Below, in pieces: positions 1-8,940 of a stretch of 8,940 bases of DNA. Under the pieces are notes generated by a model. That model was not told where the DNA came from. It saw nothing but the letters and a program-made list of their open reading frames with translations, and searched no databases. Source of the stretch: a virus (taxonomy: Duplodnaviria > Heunggongvirae > Uroviricota > Caudoviricetes); the IMG/VR virus record IMGVR_UViG_2700989521_000019. The stretch is one strand, 5' to 3'. Each line of letters begins with the position of its first letter. The stretch's first letter is position 1. The position numbers and the translations under genes were made by a program.

Positions 1-1218
1 ATGAACAAACTGAGCGATACCTTGCTAAGGAAACTTCATGGTAAGCCAGCGGAGAAAAACACGTTTTATAGTGATGGCGGAAACCTGAGCGTGAAATATT
101 TAACATCAGGGAAATTGACCTGGTATTTCACATACAGGGCCGGAACGGGAAGGGAGACACGACCCGAACGCATTAAGCTGGGAAGTTATCCTGATCTGAG
201 CCTGAAATCAGCCAGGGAAAAAGCCGCCCAGTGTCGCGCATGGCTGGCAGAGGGGAAAAATCCACGTCATGAGCTTAATTACACCGTACAGGAAGCGTTA
301 AAGCCGGTAACGGTTGGCGATGCGCTCACCTACTGGCTTGAGTATTACGTAAAGGAAAACCGCGTGGATTATATCGCCCTGAAAAGGCGACTTAATAATC
401 ACGTAATACAGCAGATTGGTGCTATGCCGCTGGATAAATGCGAGCTACGGCACTGGCTGGCCTGTTTTGACCAGGTGGCAAAGCGAACGCCTGTTACTGC
501 CGGATTCGTGCTACAGGCGTGCAAACAGGCGCTTAAGTTCTGCCGTAGGCGGCGCTATGCAATCAGCAACGTTCTGGACGATCTGAACGTGGCGGACGTT
601 GGGAAAAAACCGGATATAAGCGAACGTGTCTTAAGTAACAAAGAACTTGGCGAATTATTGCAGGCACTGGACAAAAAAATATTCTCCCCTTACTACGTCG
701 CGTTAATCCGCCTCCTGATTGTCTTCGGAGCCAGAACGGTAGAACTGAGGTTATCGGAGATCGGGGAGTGGGATTTTACGGAAATGCTATGGACCGTTCC
801 GAAGGAGCACAGCAAAACGAAGGTCGCAATATTCCGGCCCATACCGGAAGCGATCCTGCCGTTCGTCACGCAGCTGGTGGAGCAGAACAGGCACACGGGC
901 TTATTGCTGGGGGAAGTGAAACAGGAGGCCAGCGTATCGCAGTATGGAAGATTAGCGCACAGGAGGCTTAATCATCCTCACTGGTCACTGCATGACATCC
1001 GGCGCACCTTTACAACCATGCTGAACGATTTAGGCGTTGATCCGCATGTCGTGGAGCAGCTTACAGGCCACCAGATGCCAGGAATGCAGCGAGTTTATAA
1101 TCATTCCCGTTATCTGGATGCTAAACGCAATGCGCTGGATATGTGGACGGAGCGGTTAGGGATACTGGCGGGAACACATGAAAACGTAACCACGCTACCA
1201 GTAGCCAGAAGAAAATAA
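1..1218 (+). CDS. int: Tyrosine recombinase / phage integrase, P4-like family (405 aa). Begins at window edge so the true start could lie upstream.
   Basis: N-terminal arm-binding-type region (LSDTLLRKLHGKP...FYSDGGNLSVKY...WYFTYR) typical of P4-family integrases; C-terminal catalytic signature with box I Arg (GARTVELR), HxxR (LHDIRRTF), GHQ and terminal Tyr (RVYNHSRY). Long uninterrupted ORF with the expected int-alpA neighbourhood. Confidence 0.9.
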   Translation: MNKLSDTLLRKLHGKPAEKNTFYSDGGNLSVKYLTSGKLTWYFTYRAGTGRETRPERIKLGSYPDLSLKSAREKAAQCRAWLAEGKNPRHELNYTVQEALKPVTVGDALTYWLEYYVKENRVDYIALKRRLNNHVIQQIGAMPLDKCELRHWLACFDQVAKRTPVTAGFVLQACKQALKFCRRRRYAISNVLDDLNVADVGKKPDISERVLSNKELGELLQALDKKIFSPYYVALIRLLIVFGARTVELRLSEIGEWDFTEMLWTVPKEHSKTKVAIFRPIPEAILPFVTQLVEQNRHTGLLLGEVKQEASVSQYGRLAHRRLNHPHWSLHDIRRTFTTMLNDLGVDPHVVEQLTGHQMPGMQRVYNHSRYLDAKRNALDMWTERLGILAGTHENVTTLPVARRK

Positions 1219-1235
1219 TTTTTTTCGTGTTTTTT

Positions 1236-1251
1236 CAGTATGCGCATACTG
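1236..1251. repeat. Perfect 16-bp palindrome CAGTATGCGCATACTG just downstream of the int stop; candidate protein-binding site
   Basis: Read directly: cagtatgc|gcatactg is its own reverse complement; preceded by a T-rich tract and followed by a partial repeat gtatatgcga. Confidence 0.5.
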
Positions 1252-1260
1252 TATATGCGA

Positions 1261-1310
1261 ACAGATACAACGTGCAACAATGAGCAACAATGTGGAACAA
1301 CCACGAACAA
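1261..1310. repeat. Five tandem 10-bp units each ending in (A)ACAA (acagatacaa cgtgcaacaa tgagcaacaa tgtggaacaa ccacgaacaa); helically phased repeat array
   Basis: Read directly; the 10-bp periodicity places AACAA on one face of the helix, consistent with phased binding sites or intrinsic bending, in the int-alpA intergenic region. Confidence 0.5.
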
Positions 1311-1584
1311 GAGGCGAAAAAGCATACAGATTTATAAGTGGCTGATTTTTAATGTGTCACTGGTTTTTTATACACTAGCGAATCACTCTTTAAAGAGCGA
1401 GAAAAAAGGCATGAAACAATATTTTATGCCTTTGTATTAACATGAATTTAAAATATTTTATTCTTACTGTTTCATTTTCTGTAAATCATACATCCTCAAT
1501 ATTTGCCATTCATCACTCTAGCGGGAACAATACGACACAATAAGACACCTGATGACTCTTTAAGAAACGAAAGGGGGGGCAATA

Positions 1585-1773
1585 GTGTTAAGCACTGATC
1601 GGTTTATACGTGAAAAAGAATGCGAAAAACTAACCGGCCTTAGCCGTACGTGTCGCTACCGCCTGGAAAAGGCCGGACAATTCCCATCACGTCGTAAACT
1701 TGGCGGTCGTTCCGTTGGCTGGTCTTTATCCGAGGTTCTGGCCTGGAAGGATAGCTGCAAGGCAGTTCATTAA
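1585..1773 (+). CDS. alpA: AlpA/Vis-family transcriptional regulator (prophage CP4-57-type regulatory protein / excisionase-like), 62 aa, GTG start
   Basis: Sequence FIREKECEKLTGLSRTCRYRLEKAGQFPSRRKLGGRSVGWSLSEVLAWKDS matches the AlpA-family pattern (LTGLSRxTIYRL...FPxPxKLGxRSVGWxxSEVxxW). Strong SD-like AAGGGGGGG 5 nt upstream of GTG 1585. Position immediately after int is typical. Confidence 0.8.
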   Translation: MLSTDRFIREKECEKLTGLSRTCRYRLEKAGQFPSRRKLGGRSVGWSLSEVLAWKDSCKAVH

Positions 1774-1919
1774 TCACGCTGGCGGCACGCAGCCGCCACA
1801 CATCAATCATCTGAACACAGAGCTATAACCATGAAGATTGAATATACGCCAGAACGTGGGCGGGGATTCGTTCGCCCTGGTGAAACTGAAAAACAACAAA
1901 ATTGGGGTTTTTCAGGTAT

Positions 1920-1948
1920 AAAAAAAGCGGCCCCGAAATGGAGCCGCC
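1920..1948 (-). terminator. Intrinsic terminator for the minus-strand unit (RHH-like gene and downstream)
   Basis: On the minus strand the RNA reads ggcggcuccauuucggggccgc followed by UUUUUUU: about 8-bp GC-rich stem (one G-U), 5-nt loop, 7-U tail. Confidence 0.5.
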
Positions 1949-2273
1949 TTTCTGAACAGATAACCCGCTGCGCCGTTTGTGTGTGTGATCCCAAACATAA
2001 GCACGGGGATGATAGCCGCTATCAGGCTGGTGGGCAATGCAATCAGTCTGGTTCAGTTCGTTGCCATACCTGCAATGAGCGCTTTTCCCTGTACTCTTTA
2101 AGGAATTGCTCAAGGGCAAAAGCACATGGTGCGAATCTTTCTGATTCATGCTCTATCTTTCTGCGCCGTCTTTTCCGTGCCGGTGATAATGTTTTGGTCA
2201 ATTCTTTATCGGTCATTGTGTTGTCCTGCATAGCAATGCGCCGTAATACCTCACACCACGGCGCTGATAGTGA

Positions 2274-2453
2274 TTATTCTGATTCTTTGGCCTTGCGGCG
2301 CTGGCGGCGTTTGATCTCGCCTTCAAGTGCCGAAACGATAAATTGCCCTGTACTTTCGCCATCTTCCTTTAAATTTTCTACAGCATCAGCTATTGCGTGT
2401 GGTACTCGAGCCTCAAGCTTTTTGGATTTTGCATTAACTGCTTTTGTTGCCAT
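2274..2453 (-). CDS. Small ribbon-helix-helix-like DNA-binding protein (59 aa), candidate repressor of the divergent promoter region
   Basis: Chosen start is the internal ATG (MATKAVNAKSKKLEARVPHAIADAVENLKEDGESTGQFIVSALEGEIKRRQRRKAKESE) with GAGGAA SD 7 nt upstream; the longer 106-aa ORF upstream part is hydrophobic low-quality sequence. Pattern beta-strand (KLEARVP), helix (HAIADAVENL), helix (STGQFIVSALE) resembles CopG/Arc RHH fold; basic C-terminal tail. Family assignment is from pattern only. Confidence 0.55.
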   Translation of the reverse strand: MATKAVNAKSKKLEARVPHAIADAVENLKEDGESTGQFIVSALEGEIKRRQRRKAKESE

Positions 2454-2474
2454 ATCTGATTTCCTCGTTATTAG

Positions 2475-2554
2475 GTGGCTGACAGTATACACACAAGAAA
2501 ACGGAAAAACACTATTGACGTGGCTGACACCCGTTACTAATATAGTGGCTGACA
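2475..2554. promoter_or_regulatory. Divergent promoter/operator region: three direct repeats GTGGCTGACA (2475-2484, 2520-2529, 2545-2554) overlapping a sigma70-like plus-strand promoter (-35 TTGACG 2515-2520, 17-nt spacer, -10 TAATAT 2538-2543)
   Basis: Read directly. Repeat 2 abuts the -35 and repeat 3 abuts the -10/TSS of the rightward promoter; repeat 1 lies in the leader/promoter zone of the leftward RHH-like gene. Promoter hexamers are by consensus matching only. Confidence 0.5.
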
Positions 2555-2647
2555 CCTTTATCAAGGTAATCGATGAAAAGACAAAGCCCCGCAAGTGTCG
2601 TTACCACTCGCAGGGCTTCTAACCAACAACGTAAACTAGGAGCCGTT

Positions 2648-2845
2648 ATGGTTGCTGTAAATCATATACCACACCTTGTACACACACAAACGGCCTTTGT
2701 GTGGCGTTTTCTGGCACTGAGTGCCGGAGAATCTCAAATCATCCACGTAACCGCCTGGACGGAACGCGAAGCGCGTAACCGTTGCCCGTCCGGTTGTGTT
2801 GCTGTATTTGCCGCCCGTATTCGTCAGGAGGTGCGCCATGATTAA
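2648..2845 (+). CDS. Small protein (65 aa), first gene of rightward operon; possibly Icd-like (cell-division-inhibitor-like) family, assignment uncertain
   Basis: ATG 2648 with TAGGAG SD 7 nt upstream; MVAVNHIPHLVHTQTAFVWRFLALSAGESQIIHVTAWTEREARNRCPSGCVAVFAARIRQEVRHD. The FVWRFLAL motif recalls small Icd-like proteins annotated in P4-like elements; from memory, not verified. Confidence 0.5.
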   Translation: MVAVNHIPHLVHTQTAFVWRFLALSAGESQIIHVTAWTEREARNRCPSGCVAVFAARIRQEVRHD

Positions 2846-3050
2846 TCTGTCACTTACTGACCTTAACCGCATTCAGTTTCGTGAGAAATTCACAGGGCAG
2901 CTACTGGTCAATGTGGATAAAGGTCGCGTGGTGTGTAATTACCACTTACCAGATGAAGCAATTGTCGCCACAAGGGAATCATTACAGGAAATCACAAAAC
3001 GTGCCGGAATGATTAACACGAATATTCAGGGGATGCTTTATGCACAATAA
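2838..3050 (+). CDS. Hypothetical protein (70 aa)
   Basis: ATG 2838 overlaps the stop of the upstream gene (translational coupling); AGGAGG SD 6 nt upstream. MINLSLTDLNRIQFREKF... No recognised family. Confidence 0.55.
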   Translation: MINLSLTDLNRIQFREKFTGQLLVNVDKGRVVCNYHLPDEAIVATRESLQEITKRAGMINTNIQGMLYAQ

Positions 3051-3279
3051 AACCACACCGGACGCAGCCGCCGAAGCCATCAAAACGCTGATGCACGCGC
3101 TGATTGATATTTCTGTTATCGCGGACAGGGCACATAAGCACGCCACCAGCGAAACAGAATATGCCGGTGCTTTCGTTCCTCACTCACTGGCTGTCATGCA
3201 ATTTAGTGCTGATACGGCGCTGAATGAGGCCAAAGCTATCCTGATTGCTGATTGTGAAAATGGGGGGGGTTATGCGTGA
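3040..3279 (+). CDS. Hypothetical protein (79 aa)
   Basis: ATG 3040 overlaps upstream stop (3048-3050); CAGGGG SD upstream. MHNKTTPDAAAEAIKTLMHALIDISVIADRAH... No recognised family. Confidence 0.5.
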   Translation: MHNKTTPDAAAEAIKTLMHALIDISVIADRAHKHATSETEYAGAFVPHSLAVMQFSADTALNEAKAILIADCENGGGYA

Positions 3280-3505
3280 TGATCGTTTTAATTCCCTGAA
3301 ACAGGAATTTTCCGGCGTTCCTGATGATGCGGCTGATGCGCTTTCGTCAATGCCAGAACTTATTAGAGCGGCTTTTTTCTTACTTTCCACGAGAGAATAT
3401 AAATCAACGGGGCTTGATGTACTGAATATCGCCGCCGATTATGCGGAATATGTGGCAGAGGCGCGTTATAGAAGAAAATTTCCTGAGGATGTAAGCCATG
3501 CGTGA
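3272..3505 (+). CDS. Hypothetical protein (77 aa)
   Basis: ATG 3272 preceded by a GGGGGGGG run (3262-3269); overlaps the previous gene by 8 nt. MRDDRFNSLKQEFSGVPDDAADALSSMPELIRAAFFLL... Start chosen by RBS; the ORF track start at 3245 is an alternative. Confidence 0.5.
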   Translation: MRDDRFNSLKQEFSGVPDDAADALSSMPELIRAAFFLLSTREYKSTGLDVLNIAADYAEYVAEARYRRKFPEDVSHA

Positions 3506-3731
3506 TATTTACCACCAAACAATAGACCGCGCATTTCTTGCACTTTCTCACAGTGAAAACATGATGGAAATATTGCGCATATGGCTTGAAACACTTGGCG
3601 ACAATGAACGCGACAAACAAAAATCAAGAATTGCCACAGCATTAATAACGCTTCTTGAGCCTGTAATAATGGAACTGCAAGAAATAGATCTATTGCACGA
3701 CAGATATAAAGAACAGCACACCGGAGAATAA
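3498..3731 (+). CDS. Hypothetical helical protein (77 aa)
   Basis: ATG 3498 overlaps the upstream stop; GAGG upstream. MRDIYHQTIDRAFLALSHSENMMEILRIWLETLGDNERDKQ... No recognised family. Confidence 0.5.
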   Translation: MRDIYHQTIDRAFLALSHSENMMEILRIWLETLGDNERDKQKSRIATALITLLEPVIMELQEIDLLHDRYKEQHTGE

Positions 3732-3736
3732 AAATA

Positions 3737-4036
3737 ATGAAACTTAAATATTCTGGCTTAACTGCCAGTGGCAACACTCACCCTAAATTTACGCGCGGTG
3801 ATATTTACCGCGACCAGTACGGCGGCACGGTAATGATTAAGGACGTGGAAGAACGGCGCGTAACCTACCGCCGTGAAGGTTACGAATATGATTGCGTGAT
3901 GCCTGTTTATCAGTTCCGGCGTGATTTTTCTCTGGTACAGACCGCGCCGCATAACGTGCCCACCAGCAACGCCAGGGCACGGGCAAACATCCAGAAGCTG
4001 AAAACCATGGTTAACGGATTCAGGGGCAAGAAATGA
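3737..4036 (+). CDS. Hypothetical protein (99 aa)
   Basis: ATG 3737 with GGAGAA SD; the stop overlaps the start of the ATPase gene (ATGA-type overlap at 4033-4036). MKLKYSGLTASGNTHPKFTRGDIYRDQYGG... No recognised family. Confidence 0.55.
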   Translation: MKLKYSGLTASGNTHPKFTRGDIYRDQYGGTVMIKDVEERRVTYRREGYEYDCVMPVYQFRRDFSLVQTAPHNVPTSNARARANIQKLKTMVNGFRGKK

Positions 4037-5433
4037 AAAGCGCACCGAACTTAAAAAAACAGCCTTACGACAAGATGACCGAAGTCATTATTTTTGCGGG
4101 TAGTGATGCCTGGGCACATGCGAAACAGTGGCAGGAACAGGACGGGCGACTGGCTGGCGATAATGTGCCTCCCGTTGTGCTGGCTGATGATCAACTGGAT
4201 GAACTGGCAGACCTGAGAATCATCGACGAGGGGCGCTATTGTGTCCGGCTGTACAAGGCAGGCCACATCAGGCCATCAAATATTAATGCCATTGCGCACA
4301 AGCTGGCGGCGGCGGGTGTAACTGATGCGAATTATTACCCCGAAGGGATGCACAGCCATATGCGGGAGAACTGGCGCGAATACCTGGAACGGGTGCGCGG
4401 GAAAGAGCCGGCGGAAGAAAAAAACCACCAGCGAAAAACCACGCTACCGATGAGCGTTGGATCTACCGGATACGACACGCAACTGGATTACGTGGTTAAG
4501 GGGATTATTCCGGCGGTATCGCTATGCAGCATATACGGGGCTAGCGGGTCCTATAAATCATTCCTTGCCGGATCGTGGGCGTGCCATGTTGCCACTGGTC
4601 GCCAGTGGGGAGGCCGCAGGGTTGCACATGGTGCGGTTCTCTATGTGGTTGGTGAAGGCGGTATAGGTGTTCCGCGTCGTGTAAAAGCCTGGGAGGTTGT
4701 GCACGATGAGCAGGTGAAAAATCTGTATCTGGTAAACCGCCCCATCTTTCCGGCTGCCCCGCTTGATGTTGATGAAATGGTTATCGCTGCCCGTCAGGTG
4801 GAGCGGGAAACGGGTAAACCTGTACGCATGATTATTCTGGATACGCTGGCGCGTTGCTTTGGTGGGAATGATGAAAATGATTCCCGTGATATGGGGGCGT
4901 TTATCCGTGGTTGTGACGAACTGAAACGACGCACAGGGGCCACGGTGCTGGTGGTTCACCATTCCGGCAAGGATGAGACGAAAGGCGCGCGCGGTTCCAG
5001 TGCATTTCGTGCTTCGCTGGATGCTGAATACCGGATACGCAGGGAGGACGCAGGAAGCGAAGCGCTGGTTATCTCATGCACCAAAATGAAGGACGCGGAG
5101 GAACTCAAAGAAGCCGCATATGACTTACGCGTGGTGGAGCTTTTTACCGACGCTGACGGTGAATTAATCACGTCGCTGGTGGTGGTGGATGATCCGCGCC
5201 CTCCTGTTGAACTGGAGCGCATCGAGGAGGCAGGGAACAAGACGGAAAACCATACCGCGCTATGGGGGTGCATCCGTTCACGCACACAGAACGGCGACAA
5301 GTGCACGATCCCGCTGTTACGTGATGACATGAAAAAGCTGGGGTATGAAATGAAAAACTTCCGGCGCTGGCTGTACAAGCTGGAAAAAGATGGGGTTATT
5401 CGTATCGATGGGGATGATGTAGCGCCGCTATAA
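4033..5433 (+). CDS. RecA-fold / AAA-type ATPase, RepA- or DnaB-like replicative helicase-initiator of the element (466 aa); no recognisable primase domain
   Basis: Walker A-like GASGSYKSF (YGASGSYKSFLAGSW), Walker B-like hydrophobic strand plus acidic residue (VRMIILDTLARCFGGNDEND), downstream VLVVHHSGKDETKGARGSSAF resembling DnaB/RepA-type motifs. About 160-aa N-terminal domain of unassigned function. Long ORF with AGGGG SD. Confidence 0.85.
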   Translation: MKSAPNLKKQPYDKMTEVIIFAGSDAWAHAKQWQEQDGRLAGDNVPPVVLADDQLDELADLRIIDEGRYCVRLYKAGHIRPSNINAIAHKLAAAGVTDANYYPEGMHSHMRENWREYLERVRGKEPAEEKNHQRKTTLPMSVGSTGYDTQLDYVVKGIIPAVSLCSIYGASGSYKSFLAGSWACHVATGRQWGGRRVAHGAVLYVVGEGGIGVPRRVKAWEVVHDEQVKNLYLVNRPIFPAAPLDVDEMVIAARQVERETGKPVRMIILDTLARCFGGNDENDSRDMGAFIRGCDELKRRTGATVLVVHHSGKDETKGARGSSAFRASLDAEYRIRREDAGSEALVISCTKMKDAEELKEAAYDLRVVELFTDADGELITSLVVVDDPRPPVELERIEEAGNKTENHTALWGCIRSRTQNGDKCTIPLLRDDMKKLGYEMKNFRRWLYKLEKDGVIRIDGDDVAPL

Positions 5434-5622
5434 AAGTGAGGAGCAAAAGCGAGGGGGATAGAAAGAGGGCCAAAATTAGCCCGCTCTCCCTCACTTTTCG
5501 ACCTGTATACATCCTCAAAAGTGAGGGGTAAAAAAATACTTATGAAACACACACATAGAAAAACCGAAAATCCCAACTGCGACGAAGTGAGACGCTTGAA
5601 AAAGTGAGGCGAAAAAGTGAGA
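5433..5622. repeat. Iteron-like cluster: six copies of core AAGTGAG (consensus AAAGTGAGG) at 5433-5441, 5489-5497 (inverted), 5518-5526, 5585-5593, 5601-5609, 5614-5622, plus degenerate copies (AAAGCGAGG 5446-5454); candidate ori or operator array
   Basis: Read directly in the 200-bp intergenic region between the replicative ATPase gene and the ssb-containing operon. Confidence 0.55.
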
Positions 5623-5633
5623 GGTTGCGAGAA

Positions 5634-5885
5634 ATGACCCAAAAACGCAGAGACAGAACAGAGCCAAAATATAAAGCGTTAGACATGACTGAGCACACCT
5701 TAAAGGTGGCAATCAGAACGATAGACCGCCACACGCGGGAAGGATACGCGAAGGAACATCCCGACCTGATAAGCGCATTCATGACCACGGTGGCGGCAAA
5801 CTTTGCCACGCTGACAGAACGGGAGATTGCCGAAGCGGAACAGGTAACAACCATCAACGTTAAAACCGGAGAGGTGGAATTATGA
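5634..5885 (+). CDS. Hypothetical protein (83 aa); start ambiguous (GTG 5604, ATG 5634 or ATG 5685)
   Basis: ORF in frame with plausible GAGAGG SD before ATG 5634; stop overlaps the ssb-like start. MTQKRRDRTEPKYKALDMTEHTLKVAIRTIDRHTREGYAKEHPDLISAF... No recognised family. Confidence 0.45.
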   Translation: MTQKRRDRTEPKYKALDMTEHTLKVAIRTIDRHTREGYAKEHPDLISAFMTTVAANFATLTEREIAEAEQVTTINVKTGEVEL

Positions 5886-6292
5886 CGGCACAGATAGCCG
5901 CTTACGGGCGGCTGGTGGACGACCCGCAGGTAAAACAGACCAGCAAGGGCACACCGATGACGCTGGCGCGTATGGCGGTATCTTTGCCATGCAGCCAGGC
6001 ACAGGACGGACAGGCGACGTTATGGTTATCGGTCATCGCATTTGGCAAACAGGCCGACTTCCTGGCTAAACATCAAAAAGGCGATGTTGCCAGCGTATCC
6101 GGCACGATGCAGGTAAGCCAGTGGACCGGACAGAACGGAGAAACGCGGCAGGGCTGGCAGGTTATCGCAGACAGCGTAATCAGTGCCCGCGCGGCACGTC
6201 CAGGCGGGAACAGACGCAAAACCACAGGCACACAGGGTAATCAGCCACCAGCGGGAGGCGATGACCCTTACGGTGATGATATTTCGTTCTGA
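5882..6292 (+). CDS. ssb: Single-stranded DNA-binding protein-like (SSB family), 136 aa, element-encoded
   Basis: N-terminal OB-fold-like pattern (IAAYGRLVDDPQVKQTSKGTPMTLARMAVSL...WLSVIAFGKQADFLAKHQKGDVASVSGTMQVSQWTGQNGETRQ), Gly/Gln/Pro-rich linker and acidic C-terminal tail DDPYGDDISF resembling the SSB tail DDDIPF. GGAG SD; start overlaps upstream stop. Confidence 0.7.
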   Translation: MTAQIAAYGRLVDDPQVKQTSKGTPMTLARMAVSLPCSQAQDGQATLWLSVIAFGKQADFLAKHQKGDVASVSGTMQVSQWTGQNGETRQGWQVIADSVISARAARPGGNRRKTTGTQGNQPPAGGDDPYGDDISF

Positions 6293-6302
6293 GGGGGTGA
6301 CG

Positions 6303-6575
6303 ATGGTACATGACCGCATAGCGGAGGAACTGGAGGCGAAAGGCTTTTACCGGAGGGCGGCGGCGCGATGGGGTGAAGTCATGCAGCTGGTGGAGACAGG
6401 CAAGGAACGGCATCACATCACGATGCGACGGCTGGAATGTTCAAGGAAGGCACAGAGGGCACCGGAGCCGCCGGATAATTTCGGAGACCTGAAAAAGGCA
6501 GTCGATCGCACTTATGCCGAAATGGGTATAGATGGTGCTGGTGATGAAATATGGCGCAATTACCAGGACAGCTAA
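6303..6575 (+). CDS. PerC-family transcriptional regulator-like protein (90 aa)
   Basis: Start ATG 6303 with GAGGGGG SD 5 nt upstream (the longer ORF from 6183 overlaps ssb and lacks an RBS). N-terminus AEELEAKGFYRRAAARWGEVM matches the conserved PerC motif (EEKGLWRRAAxRW) as remembered. Confidence 0.65.
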   Translation: MVHDRIAEELEAKGFYRRAAARWGEVMQLVETGKERHHITMRRLECSRKAQRAPEPPDNFGDLKKAVDRTYAEMGIDGAGDEIWRNYQDS

Positions 6576-6581
6576 TCAAAC

Positions 6582-6605
6582 AGCCGGAGAAATCCGGCTT
6601 TTTTT
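6582..6605 (+). terminator. Rho-independent terminator after the perC-like gene
   Basis: AGCCGGA-GAAA-TCCGGCT (7-bp stem, GNRA tetraloop) followed by a T6 run. Confidence 0.75.
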
Positions 6606-6701
6606 GCACCAGTTGAAACGGTATGGCGCATTACCGGGTTTTCGTCACGGTCAGGCATAGTTACTATCTGAAACAAACAGACACAACAGAGGAAAAAAAC
6701 A

Positions 6702-6926
6702 ATGCCGATGAAATTTGATGAGATATTAAAACAGCGTGATAAATACCATGCTGACAACATGGAGACGATGAGCATCAATGATTACCGCGCATTCCTGGAG
6801 ACGGGCGCACTGATTGAAAAGGATCAGCATGGTTTTGTGAGATGTGCTCTATCCGGTGAAATGCTGGCGGTAAATCCTGAACAGATAGATGCATTGATAG
6901 AATTTCTGAAAGAGATCAGAGACTGA
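6702..6926 (+). CDS. Hypothetical protein (74 aa)
   Basis: ATG 6702 with GAGGAA SD; MPMKFDEILKQRDKYHADNMETMSINDYRAFLETGALIEKDQHGFVRCALSGEMLAVNPEQIDALIEFLKEIRD; bounded by terminators on both sides. No recognised family. Confidence 0.55.
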   Translation: MPMKFDEILKQRDKYHADNMETMSINDYRAFLETGALIEKDQHGFVRCALSGEMLAVNPEQIDALIEFLKEIRD

Positions 6927-6945
6927 GCCAGCACACAGCACACAT

Positions 6946-6968
6946 AGCCGGAGCAATCCGGCTTTTTT
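6946..6968 (+). terminator. Rho-independent terminator, near-duplicate of the one at 6582-6605
   Basis: AGCCGGA-GCAA-TCCGGCT (same 7-bp stem, GNRA loop) followed by a T5 run. Confidence 0.75.
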
Positions 6969-7007
6969 GCGCCCAAAAAAAGCCCGGCGAGTCAGATTTC
7001 ATCAATC

Positions 7008-7208
7008 ATGGACAGCCTCCCGCTTACTATGCAAAGGAGCTTCCCACAGATTACCCCCGCCATGCTGGATAGGCTTAAAAGGGAAGTGGTTAAAGCCTGT
7101 AATGCCAGTGCCAGAGTTGCCGACAACCTCCCACAGATACTGGCTGATTACTTGAAAGAAACAACCGGAAACGTACCGGAAAAGTTGCTACAGAAGAAAG
7201 GCGAGTAA
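7008..7208 (+). CDS. Hypothetical protein (66 aa); weak call, start and RBS unclear
   Basis: ORF only; no convincing SD for ATG 7008, 7029 or 7062. MDSLPLTMQRSFPQITPAMLDRLKREVVKACNASARVADNLPQILADYLKETTGNVPEKLLQKKGE. Confidence 0.3.
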   Translation: MDSLPLTMQRSFPQITPAMLDRLKREVVKACNASARVADNLPQILADYLKETTGNVPEKLLQKKGE

Positions 7209-7463
7209 CAGACGCGCAATTATTGAACAAAACTGAGAAACGACATGAAAGCGTCATAAATCGCCATTTTAGATGATTACCGTGTCGTTTCTTTTTATTG
7301 TGTATCTATTTAAAAACAAATAGTTATGTTCGAGAAGTACCGACATGCTTTTTCCAGAAAAATTTTCATAAACAGATAAAAACCGCGAGGTCGCCGCCCC
7401 GTAACGGGCCATAATTCCAGGAAGGACCCGACGACACCAGACTATCAGAGCGATGGGGGCACA

Positions 7464-8574: not shown

Positions 8575-8940
8575 ATGTATATTTATTGGATTTTATTAGG
8601 CCTGGCTATTGCTACAGAAATTACCGGTACGCTGTCAATGAAATGGGCGAGCGTCAGTGAGGGAAATGGCGGCTTTATTTTAATGCTGGTGATGATTTCT
8701 CTGTCGTATATATTTCTCTCTTTCGCCGTTAAAAAGATCGCCTTAGGCGTAGCTTATGCGCTGTGGGAAGGTATCGGTATTTTATTTATTACCTTGTTTA
8801 GCGTTTTGTTATTCGACGAAAGTTTATCGCTGATGAAAATTGCCGGGTTAACCACCCTGGTCGCCGGGATTGTGTTGATAAAATCAGGTACCCGTAAAGC
8901 GCGTAAACCTGAACTGGAGGTGAACCATGGCGCAGTTTGA
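8575..8940 (+). CDS. mdtJ: Multidrug/spermidine efflux SMR-family transporter subunit MdtJ (121 aa), complete
   Basis: Translation ([33 protein letters not shown]...[21 protein letters not shown]) matches Escherichia coli MdtJ as I remember it; small four-helix hydrophobic SMR protein; AGGAGA SD 7 nt upstream; stop TGA 8938-8940. Confidence 0.93.
8927..8940 (+). CDS. mdtI: Start of mdtI (SMR partner subunit), truncated by window end; only codons MAQF visible
   Basis: ATG 8927 overlapping the mdtJ 3-prime end, reading MAQF, consistent with the remembered MdtI N-terminus and the mdtJI operon arrangement. Only 14 nt visible. Confidence 0.45.

Follow-up and report, generated by a model that had tools for sequence, protein, structure and literature searches.

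Organisation of the operon

The DNA analysed here, a window of 8,940 nucleotides (nt) held as IMG/VR record IMGVR_UViG_2700989521_000019, is by sequence comparison a Gram-negative phage-inducible chromosomal island (PICI), that is, a phage satellite, of the EcCICFT073 type inserted in tqsA. Positions 2648–4036 hold six small open reading frames (ORFs) that are chained by stop/start overlaps of 4–11 nt into a gene for a RepA-family helicase. The block and the helicase gene are as follows (aa, amino acids).

ORF1, 2648–2845, plus strand: Icd-like protein of 65 aa, the leader cistron
ORF2, 2838–3050, plus strand: 70-aa protein, phrog_340 (1e-23), in a variable slot
ORF3, 3040–3279, plus strand: 79-aa protein, N-terminal module of the phrog_2512 family, acidic, predicted helical hairpin
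ORF4, 3272–3505, plus strand: 77-aa protein, C-terminal module of the phrog_2512 family, acidic, helical
ORF5, 3498–3731, plus strand: 77-aa protein, phrog_2196 (1e-42), acidic, helical
ORF6, 3737–4036, plus strand: 99-aa protein, DUF4222
RepA-family helicase gene, 4033–5433, plus strand: 466-aa protein, AAA_25 (PF13481, 2.4e-43) and phrog_2850, the last cistron of the putatively coupled chain

ORF1 and ORF2 overlap by 8 nt (ATGATTAA), ORF2 and ORF3 by 11 nt, and ORF3/ORF4 and ORF4/ORF5 by 8 nt each. ORF5 and ORF6 do not overlap and are separated by a 5-nt gap, and ORF6 overlaps the helicase gene by the four nucleotides ATGA. A Shine-Dalgarno-like motif stands at every ORF start, and the same genes are annotated by RefSeq in E. 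coli 042 and CFT073. The pairwise ratio of non-synonymous to synonymous substitution (dN/dS) among alleles is 0.17–0.45 for all six ORFs, compared with 0.20 for RepA and 0.18 for SSB. The six ORFs are real genes and all are under purifying selection. The arrangement of their stops and starts suggests that translation of the successive cistrons would be coupled.

An earlier reading of this DNA, made from its letters and ORF list and called here the sequence-only reading, had given ORF coordinates and stop/start overlaps that prove exact. It had also described a tightly coupled operon ending in a replicative ATPase, which agrees with the chain of overlaps and with the presence of this chain in ~80 related loci that have unrelated integrases and different replicases. 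Its count of six genes stands in that all six ORFs are real, but ORF3 and ORF4 correspond to the two halves of a single family. Because ORF3 plus ORF4 form a single gene in many relatives, ‘six genes’ describes one allelic state of a five-or-six-gene operon. The statement that, the first gene apart, none matches a recognised family holds for function, which is uncharacterised, but not for family, since DUF4222 (PF13973), phrog_340, phrog_2512 and phrog_2196 could all be assigned. Homology searches did not turn all six into housekeeping replication proteins, and no paper characterising the six ORFs was found in the literature searched.

The operon is not particular to the window. Hundreds of E. 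coli genomes carry it, as does the model PICI EcCICFT073; it is thus common, already annotated and part of a known satellite family. A scan of species-representative genomes gave a single further locus, in Shigella, which points to a family confined to elements of the Escherichia/Shigella type. A blastn search of deposited phages with window positions 2200–5500 returned no match.

Fused and split forms of ORF3 and ORF4

In many relatives a single gene of 154–155 aa replaces ORF3 and ORF4. One of these is E. coli 042 (155 aa), whose sole difference from the window in this region is the length of a run of guanines.

Poly-G tract, 3262–3269, plus strand: G8 in the window

The tract is G10 in 042. 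The family profile phrog_2512 covers both proteins, with ORF3 matching positions 1–76 of 154 and ORF4 positions 78–154, and each half also has a separate PHROG (phrog_5146 and phrog_24341, respectively). Both halves are under purifying selection by dN/dS (0.21 for ORF3, 0.17 for ORF4). In the fused state (G7 or G10) the tract is read as Gly-Gly-Gly codons, whilst G8 and G9 give the split state.

Tract length is polymorphic. When the 25-nt flanks are required to be identical, complete E. coli genomes give G7 359, G8 72, G9 28 and G10 9; among the IMG/VR loci the counts are G7 23, G8 18, G9 15, G10 4 and G11 1, with four further tracts that are interrupted (GGGGGTGG) and lock the split frame. 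When loci were grouped by 430-nt flanks differing at no more than two bases, 8 of the 11 groups contained more than one tract length. The split form recurs and is no isolated error: the exact 79-aa product of ORF3 is encoded on 912 contigs and the exact 77-aa product of ORF4 on at least 1000, and CFT073 has the same G8 split. The family as a whole is tiny (50 clusters at 50% identity among 1.84 billion representatives). Its distant members occur naturally as separate N-halves or C-halves and have no G tract, and many of the stand-alone ORF4 homologues begin exactly at the methionine of ORF4. In one distant lineage the fused and split forms are the same nucleotide string in two reading frames.

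In the split state the ATG of ORF4 lies two bases after the G run (GGGGGGGGTTATG), so the run can serve as the Shine-Dalgarno site of ORF4, and from its position it looks like one. The AlphaFold2 model of the fused protein places helices at residues 9–37 and 39–73, at low confidence, and joins two helical parts by a Gly-rich linker that is disordered. We conclude that ORF3 and ORF4 are probably two modules that can work fused or apart, toggled by slippage of the tract. Like the homopolymeric tracts of phase-variable contingency loci, this coding-sequence tract (G7–G11) changes length far faster than its flanks. It differs from them in its outcome: out-of-frame lengths leave two intact ORFs with their own starts instead of switching a gene ON or OFF, so the tract would act as a fused/split toggle and as a candidate ribosome-binding site for the downstream gene.

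Two further arrangements of these modules were seen. Six loci (L054, L056, L058, L059, L062 and L066) have a 127-aa ORF2-like gene between the ORF3-like and ORF4-like genes, and some database proteins (P0232) have an ORF2-like N-terminus fused to an ORF4 module.

Control region and candidate repressor

Upstream of ORF1 lies a control region from which the operon and a leftward gene pair diverge.

ORF of 57 aa, 2043–2216, minus strand: downstream of the gene listed next
YlcI/YnfO-family ribbon-helix-helix (RHH) protein of 59 aa, 2274–2453, minus strand: candidate repressor, transcribed away from the operon
Control region, 2475–2554: three 10-bp direct repeats, GTGGCTGACA, at 2475, 2520 and 2545, and a rightward promoter
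Sigma-70-like rightward promoter, 2515–2543, from a promoter scan: -35 TTGACG at 2515–2520, 17-nt spacer, -10 TAATAT at 2538–2543

The three repeats flank and overlap the sigma-70-like promoter, giving the region the switch-like character that the sequence-only reading had expected when it proposed a switch promoter for the operon. Relatives have repeats at the same positions with allele-specific central bases (GTGGGCCACA, which is the CFT073 operator, GTGTTCAACAC, GTGTAAGACAC and CTGGAATCCAG). Across loci these central bases co-vary with the allele of the divergent RHH protein, and five repressor–operator pairs can be read. Such covariation is the signature of an immunity repressor and its operators. 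The YlcI/YnfO-like RHH protein becomes a repressor candidate because its alleles co-vary with the 10-bp operators over the promoter; it would bind these repeats, and the sigma-70-like promoter would be both used and repressed.

The protein matches NF041551 (1e-16) and phrog_949, with a weak Arc-like match. Its gene is upstream of the Icd-like gene in 54 of the 68 hairpin-type units described below, and also in loci of the C4 type. In EcCICFT073, AlpA activates the corresponding genes and a master repressor was not identified (PMC6092414). The 57-aa ORF is conserved, is annotated as hypothetical in CFT073 and could be assigned to no family; it is probably co-transcribed with the candidate repressor gene.

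Predicted antisense RNA over the start of ORF1

Between the operon promoter and the first codons of ORF1 lies a second conserved unit, read on the minus strand.

Predicted cis-antisense RNA of ~80 nt, 2575–2654, minus strand: a unit of -10 box, motif, terminator hairpin and U-rich tail
Antisense -10 box TATGAT, 2661–2666, minus strand: within codons 5–7 of ORF1
Terminator hairpin of the antisense unit, 2583–2619, minus strand: between the operon promoter and the ribosome-binding site of ORF1
Conserved motif UUGGUUAGA (TCTAACCA on the plus strand), 2618–2625, minus strand

The hairpin unit is 100% conserved between the window and CFT073 despite divergent flanks. Its minus strand folds with -36.6 kcal/mol (z -4.8), against a z of -0.9 for the plus strand, and 27 of 31 variants have the better fold on the minus strand. 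A covariance model gave 83 matches, every one on the minus strand. In its alignment 97.6% of cells pair and 8 of 13 pairs have changed on both sides; none of 500 shuffles reached the pairing and covariation values of the hairpin, and slid controls paired at 53% or less. About 13% of the hairpin cells are G-U on the minus strand, and these would be mismatches on the plus strand.

A U-rich tail follows the hairpin on the minus strand. All 53 unique units have a -10 box (TATGAT, TATAAT or TATGCT, often with the TG of an extended -10) at 35–37 nt upstream of the motif. Its nucleotides are conserved even in units where ORF1 crosses the box in another reading frame, and the whole unit is also present in sibling loci where it lies opposite a mere remnant of an Icd-like start. 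The conserved unit thus predicts a cis-antisense RNA of ~80 nt, the 5' part of which is complementary to the AUG and Shine-Dalgarno site of ORF1 and would cover both. If expressed, it might gate ORF1 much as the RNA of a type I toxin–antitoxin system does, being a putative opposite-strand RNA with a candidate promoter and terminator that lies over a ribosome-binding site.

Rfam returned nothing above noise, either in an E-value scan of the whole window or in a permissive scan of 2540–2700, and on these scans an RNA of the C4/IsrK type in the window was rejected. Six sibling loci (L033, L035, L036, L039, L044 and L083; for example L035 at 4403–4465) have the hairpin/antisense unit in two copies; the second is found ~750 nt farther upstream and again faces the start of an ORF that looks Icd-like (MAIKEHSLLFIHTQT...).

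The other small proteins

ORF1 matches the Icd-like model NF033153 with 64.8 bits (cut-off 25; E 5.2e-18), which bears out the tentative Icd-like assignment made in the sequence-only reading. It further matches phrog_29966, phrog_1743 and phrog_6196, has a dN/dS of 0.37 and a grand average of hydropathy of 0.02, and has no predicted membrane helix. A tblastn search with ORF1 did not find P1 Icd; it matched one 16.5-kb record and no P1-type phage.

ORF2 occupies a variable slot, which elsewhere is filled by an unrelated 76-aa gene (CFT073) or by an ORF2 relative of 122–127 aa, or is empty; its dN/dS of 0.45 comes from a single pair. ORF5 (isoelectric point 5.1, dN/dS 0.24) is found in most related loci. 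The families of ORF2, ORF3/ORF4 and ORF5 (phrog_340, phrog_2512 and phrog_2196) are PHROG families that have no functional annotation.

ORF6 matches DUF4222 (PF13973) with 83.3 bits (cut-off 27; 8e-24). It is basic, with an isoelectric point of 10, and is predicted to form a Tudor/SH3/KOW-like β-barrel followed by a C-terminal helix. Across loci the DUF4222 gene is always directly upstream of the replicase gene, whether this encodes a RepA-type helicase or a P4-α-like primase. Its fold matches are generic Tudor/KOW/SH3 barrels and uncharacterised phage proteins, so that a fold is assigned but a function does not follow from it. A tblastn search with ORF6 gave weak matches only, in a few temperate phages. 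When ORF2, the ORF3/ORF4 profile and ORF6 were compared with PDB sequences, no relative of solved structure was detected, and none of the ORFs matched a PADLOC defence model.

Comparison with EcCICFT073, P4 and P1

The window and EcCICFT073 share their layout: int, alpA, leftward orf57 and YlcI/YnfO genes, then an Icd-like gene, small ORFs and DUF4222, followed by the replicase, an ORF of 83–85 aa, SSB and PerC. ORF4, ORF5 and ORF6 are 87–92% identical between the two and the hairpin unit is identical, as is the G8 split, whereas ORF1 and ORF3 are only 46% and 52% identical and ORF2 gives way to an unrelated 76-aa gene. The replicases are otherwise unrelated (a RepA-type helicase in the window and, in CFT073, a P4-α-like primase, Pri, that is 40% identical to P4 α) and have only their first ~125 aa in common, at 62% identity. 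This shared N-terminal domain (window 4033–4400) travels with the upstream DUF4222/ORF5/ORF4 block, nucleotide identity being 82% over 3045–4398. Genes for the capsid, head decoration and RppA are present in EcCICFT073 and missing from the window. In both elements the small ORFs are without published function.

Satellite P4 resembles the window at several points. A Vis/AlpA homologue lies upstream (AlpA is 45% identical to P4 Vis). Residues 84–131 of the P4 ‘cI ORF’ match the Icd-like model (7.7e-21), and this ORF stands at the head of the α operon as ORF1 does here. It is followed by eps and orf151, with an 8-nt overlap each, and then by cnr and the α replicase, in a chain similar to that of the window. 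Entry into the P4 operon is under RNA control, as would be the case here if the predicted RNA is made. The RNAs differ, however. In P4 the CI RNA (Rfam C4) comes from the sense strand and has seqA/seqC as its targets, whilst the window has no C4 or isrK and instead has a predicted cis-antisense RNA together with an RHH protein and its candidate operators.

No window ORF gave a Pfam match to eps (Derepression, PF25738) or Cnr (DUF5375), or a BLAST match to these P4 proteins; for Cnr no profile comparison was made. An ORF3 related to the P4 ε derepressor was considered on the strength of a 24-residue BLAST/hhalign resemblance and rejected when this vanished in a profile–profile comparison (hhalign probability 1.5%). 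DUF4222 against the N-terminal domain of P4 orf151 gave an hhalign probability of 14.5%, a weak and unconvincing lead. At the level of sequence and profile, therefore, no homology to eps, orf151 or cnr could be detected for the middle genes of the window.

In seven sibling loci (L011, L017, L019, L035, L067, L074 and L083) Rfam isrK and C4 lie between the hairpin unit and the Icd-like gene, for example at 3003–3191 of L017, and such RNAs ahead of the Icd-like gene in sibling PICIs have been noted before (PMC10111431). Two designs of RNA control, isrK/C4 and the hairpin with its predicted antisense unit, coexist in one island family.

The immI region of phage P1 (c4-icd-ant) offers a second parallel. 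There a small RNA blocks translation of an Icd-type leader ORF, on which the downstream genes depend through overlapping stop and start codons. The sar RNA of P22 (sar/ant) is encoded in cis, opposite the ribosome-binding site that it covers, as is the RNA predicted in the window. Unlike P1 immI, the window has no antirepressor gene next in line, its downstream cargo being a replication module, and has no C4-family RNA upstream on the same strand (no Rfam match). P1 Icd and ORF1 are related at the profile level only. By analogy, therefore, the operon of the window appears to be a variant of the P4 α operon/P1 immI design, in which an RNA-gated Icd-type leader heads a coupled chain into the replicase.

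Distal genes and state of the island

The remaining features of the transcription unit, and the genes at the int end of the island, are these.

Iteron-like repeats AAAAGTGAGG, at least five copies, 5432–5624, directly 3' of the helicase gene: candidate replication origin
Rest of the transcription unit, 5634–6604, plus strand: 83-aa phrog_1231 protein, SSB, PerC-family regulator and a terminator-like hairpin
int, 1–1218: one end of the island, with alpA following in the same orientation
alpA regulator gene, 1585–1773: PF05930 match, 5e-17

The repeats extend in part into the start region of the next ORF, and their position agrees with the origin location reported for PICIs (PMC6092414). The terminator-like hairpin with its T run at 6583–6604 (AGCCGGAGAAATCCGGCTTTTTT) was read from the sequence. 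Near-identical hairpins of this kind (AGCCGGAG.AATCCGGCTTTTTT) stand at 6577–6604, after PerC, and at 6941–6968, after a 74-aa ORF at 6702–6926.

That the element is a satellite, as the sequence-only reading had proposed, is borne out by E. coli 042, whose island is 99.9% identical to window positions 1–6986, and by the layout of EcCICFT073. In 042 the island interrupts tqsA, beside mdtJ, and leaves it as two pseudogene fragments. The two ends of the window (1–1218 and 8575–8940) likewise place the island in tqsA, and the window begins 12 nt inside the integrase gene annotated by RefSeq. Two hallmarks of PICIs are present: the characteristic gene order, with int and alpA 91–94% identical to their CFT073 counterparts, and an element-borne replication gene with iteron-like repeats immediately 3' of it as the candidate origin. 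A further hallmark comprises genes for packaging hijack (rpp, a capsid homologue) and a cos site, and of these the genes are absent. A segment of ~3 kb that encodes the major capsid protein, the head-decoration protein and rppA (c1503) in 042 and CFT073 is reduced to 366 bp at window 6987–7352. Because this ~3 kb with its capsid homologue, head-decoration gene and rppA has been lost, the window copy is probably a decaying island, and probably one that can no longer be transferred. rppA is needed for packaging, and its product, encoded elsewhere on the island, is the known interference factor of EcCICFT073 (PMC6739421). Helper-phage dependence of induction, replication and transfer has been demonstrated for EcCICFT073 only (PMC6092414).

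Discussion

We propose, as a reading that we hold to be fairly probable, that these genes form the early, replication-entry operon of the PICI, gated by a repressor and an antisense RNA and translationally coupled, with small products that assist satellite replication or host take-over. Transcription would start at the sigma-70-like promoter at 2515–2543, the -35 and +1 regions of which lie under the 10-bp operators for the divergent YlcI/YnfO RHH protein. Because the start of each following cistron overlaps or adjoins the stop of the one before, ribosomes that begin on ORF1 would be handed down the chain, passing through ORF2, ORF3, ORF4, ORF5 and DUF4222 and on into the gene for the RepA-type helicase, behind which lie SSB and PerC. 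The ~80-nt cis-antisense RNA, from its own promoter inside ORF1, would mask the ribosome-binding site of ORF1 and so keep the whole chain, and with it satellite replication, silent until induction. The logic would be that of c4/icd/ant in P1 and of CI in P4, executed by a different RNA. ORF1 may be a division inhibitor or a leader peptide; the basic Tudor/SH3-like barrel of ORF6 would most likely bind nucleic acid or the replicase; and the acidic helical ORF3, ORF4 and ORF5 would most likely bind other proteins. The small proteins would be accessory factors specific to the satellite. The slippage-prone poly-G tract would toggle ORF3 and ORF4 between fused and split states, serving in the latter as the ribosome-binding site of ORF4.

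Several points weigh against this proposal. The controller named in published work is AlpA and not a repressor (PMC6092414), and the RHH protein is a candidate for the latter role. The -35 of the antisense promoter is poor, so that it would rely on an extended -10, which 27 of the 53 unique units have; the antisense RNA, the promoter and translational coupling are all read from sequence. The label ‘Icd-like’ for ORF1 comes from a profile match only, and no fold or family points to a biochemical function for ORF2 to ORF5. The structure model of the fused ORF3/ORF4 protein is poor (mean predicted local distance difference test score 54) and unfit for a fold search, and some of the differences in tract length could stem from sequencing errors in assemblies of long-read or 454 data.

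The conserved hairpin might instead act on the plus strand within the operon leader, as an attenuator, a processing or stability element, an antitermination site or the target of a C4/CI-type RNA, with no antisense RNA being made. Its place, downstream of the promoter and ahead of the ribosome-binding site of ORF1, is within the predicted 5' leader; the C-rich motif adjacent to it, CTAACCA(A/C)CAACG, resembles a sequence that C4-type loci have just before the Icd-like ribosome-binding site; and in those loci the unit is upstream of isrK/C4. We nevertheless judge this unlikely: the G-U pairs that make up ~13% of paired cells on the minus strand would turn into A-C mismatches if the plus strand were read, the minus-strand fold is the better one in 27 of 31 variants (with a mean advantage of ~5.6 kcal/mol), and the U-rich tail and fixed-distance -10 box occur on the minus strand only, the plus strand having no T run after the hairpin. 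Less probable still is that the window has one 155-aa gene whose ORF3/ORF4 split reflects a dead frameshift, making it a pseudogene, or an error of sequencing. This would fit the intact gene in the 99.9%-identical island of E. coli 042, the predominance of in-frame G7 among complete genomes, the degraded state of an island that has already lost its capsid and rppA module, and the proneness of homopolymers to sequencing error. It does not account for the recurrence of both exact products (on 912 contigs for the 79-aa protein and at least 1000 for the 77-aa protein), the same G8 split in CFT073, the interrupted tracts (GGGGGTGG) that hold the split frame, distant stand-alone halves with no G tract, loci with another gene between the halves, a dN/dS of ~0.2 for both, or the ATG and Shine-Dalgarno-like tract that ORF4 has kept for itself.

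A different role for the small proteins was favoured by the sequence-only reading, in which they are directed at the helper, as derepressors like P4 ε or as anti-phage interference proteins. There is something to be said for it: they hold the positions of eps, orf151 and cnr in the P4 α operon; ORF3, ORF4 and ORF5 are small, acidic and helical, a common make-up of protein inhibitors; the ORF2 slot varies between elements, as accessory or arms-race genes tend to; and the ORF3/ORF4 family, at 50 clusters among 1.84 billion representatives, is very narrow. The searches did not support it, however. No PADLOC model, and neither Pfam Derepression nor DUF5375, was matched, the hhalign probability of the ORF3 family against the P4 ε family was 1.5%, and the interference of EcCICFT073 maps to RppA (PMC6739421). 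In addition, the core genes are kept across elements that differ in integrase and replicase, under ordinary purifying selection. We regard a helper-directed role as rather doubtful, and accessory factors of the satellite itself as the better description. The proposal can also be put in a bolder form, in which Gram-negative PICIs of this family would be held silent by a previously undescribed two-layer lock (an allele-specific YlcI/YnfO RHH repressor on operators over the early promoter and a ~80-nt cis-antisense RNA over an Icd-like leader, standing in for the C4/CI RNA of P1 and P4) and the poly-G tract would in addition be a selected contingency switch that, by fusing or splitting a two-module protein, changes the effect of the satellite on helper or host. 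That both parts hold together seems to us rather improbable.

What is new here is the fused/split poly-G toggle, the pairing of candidate repressor alleles with operators and the conserved antisense unit. As satellites, PICIs are widespread, and virulence and defence genes are moved by them. The founding paper of 2018 called the existence of a master repressor in the Gram-negative PICIs unclear, AlpA being the sole known activator (PMC6092414). The biological pay-off hinges on experiments, the operon being common and annotated and its six proteins having no known biochemical function. The present comparison offers three testable candidates in EcCICFT073 itself: an RHH repressor with co-varying operators, a conserved antisense RNA over the first cistron, and a leader-ORF design shared with P4 and P1. 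The ORF3/ORF4 tract is also a caution for annotation pipelines, which may label such genes as frameshifted. It is an unusual hypermutable G tract, one whose length would decide whether two protein modules are made as a single chain or as two, and which is also a candidate ribosome-binding site.

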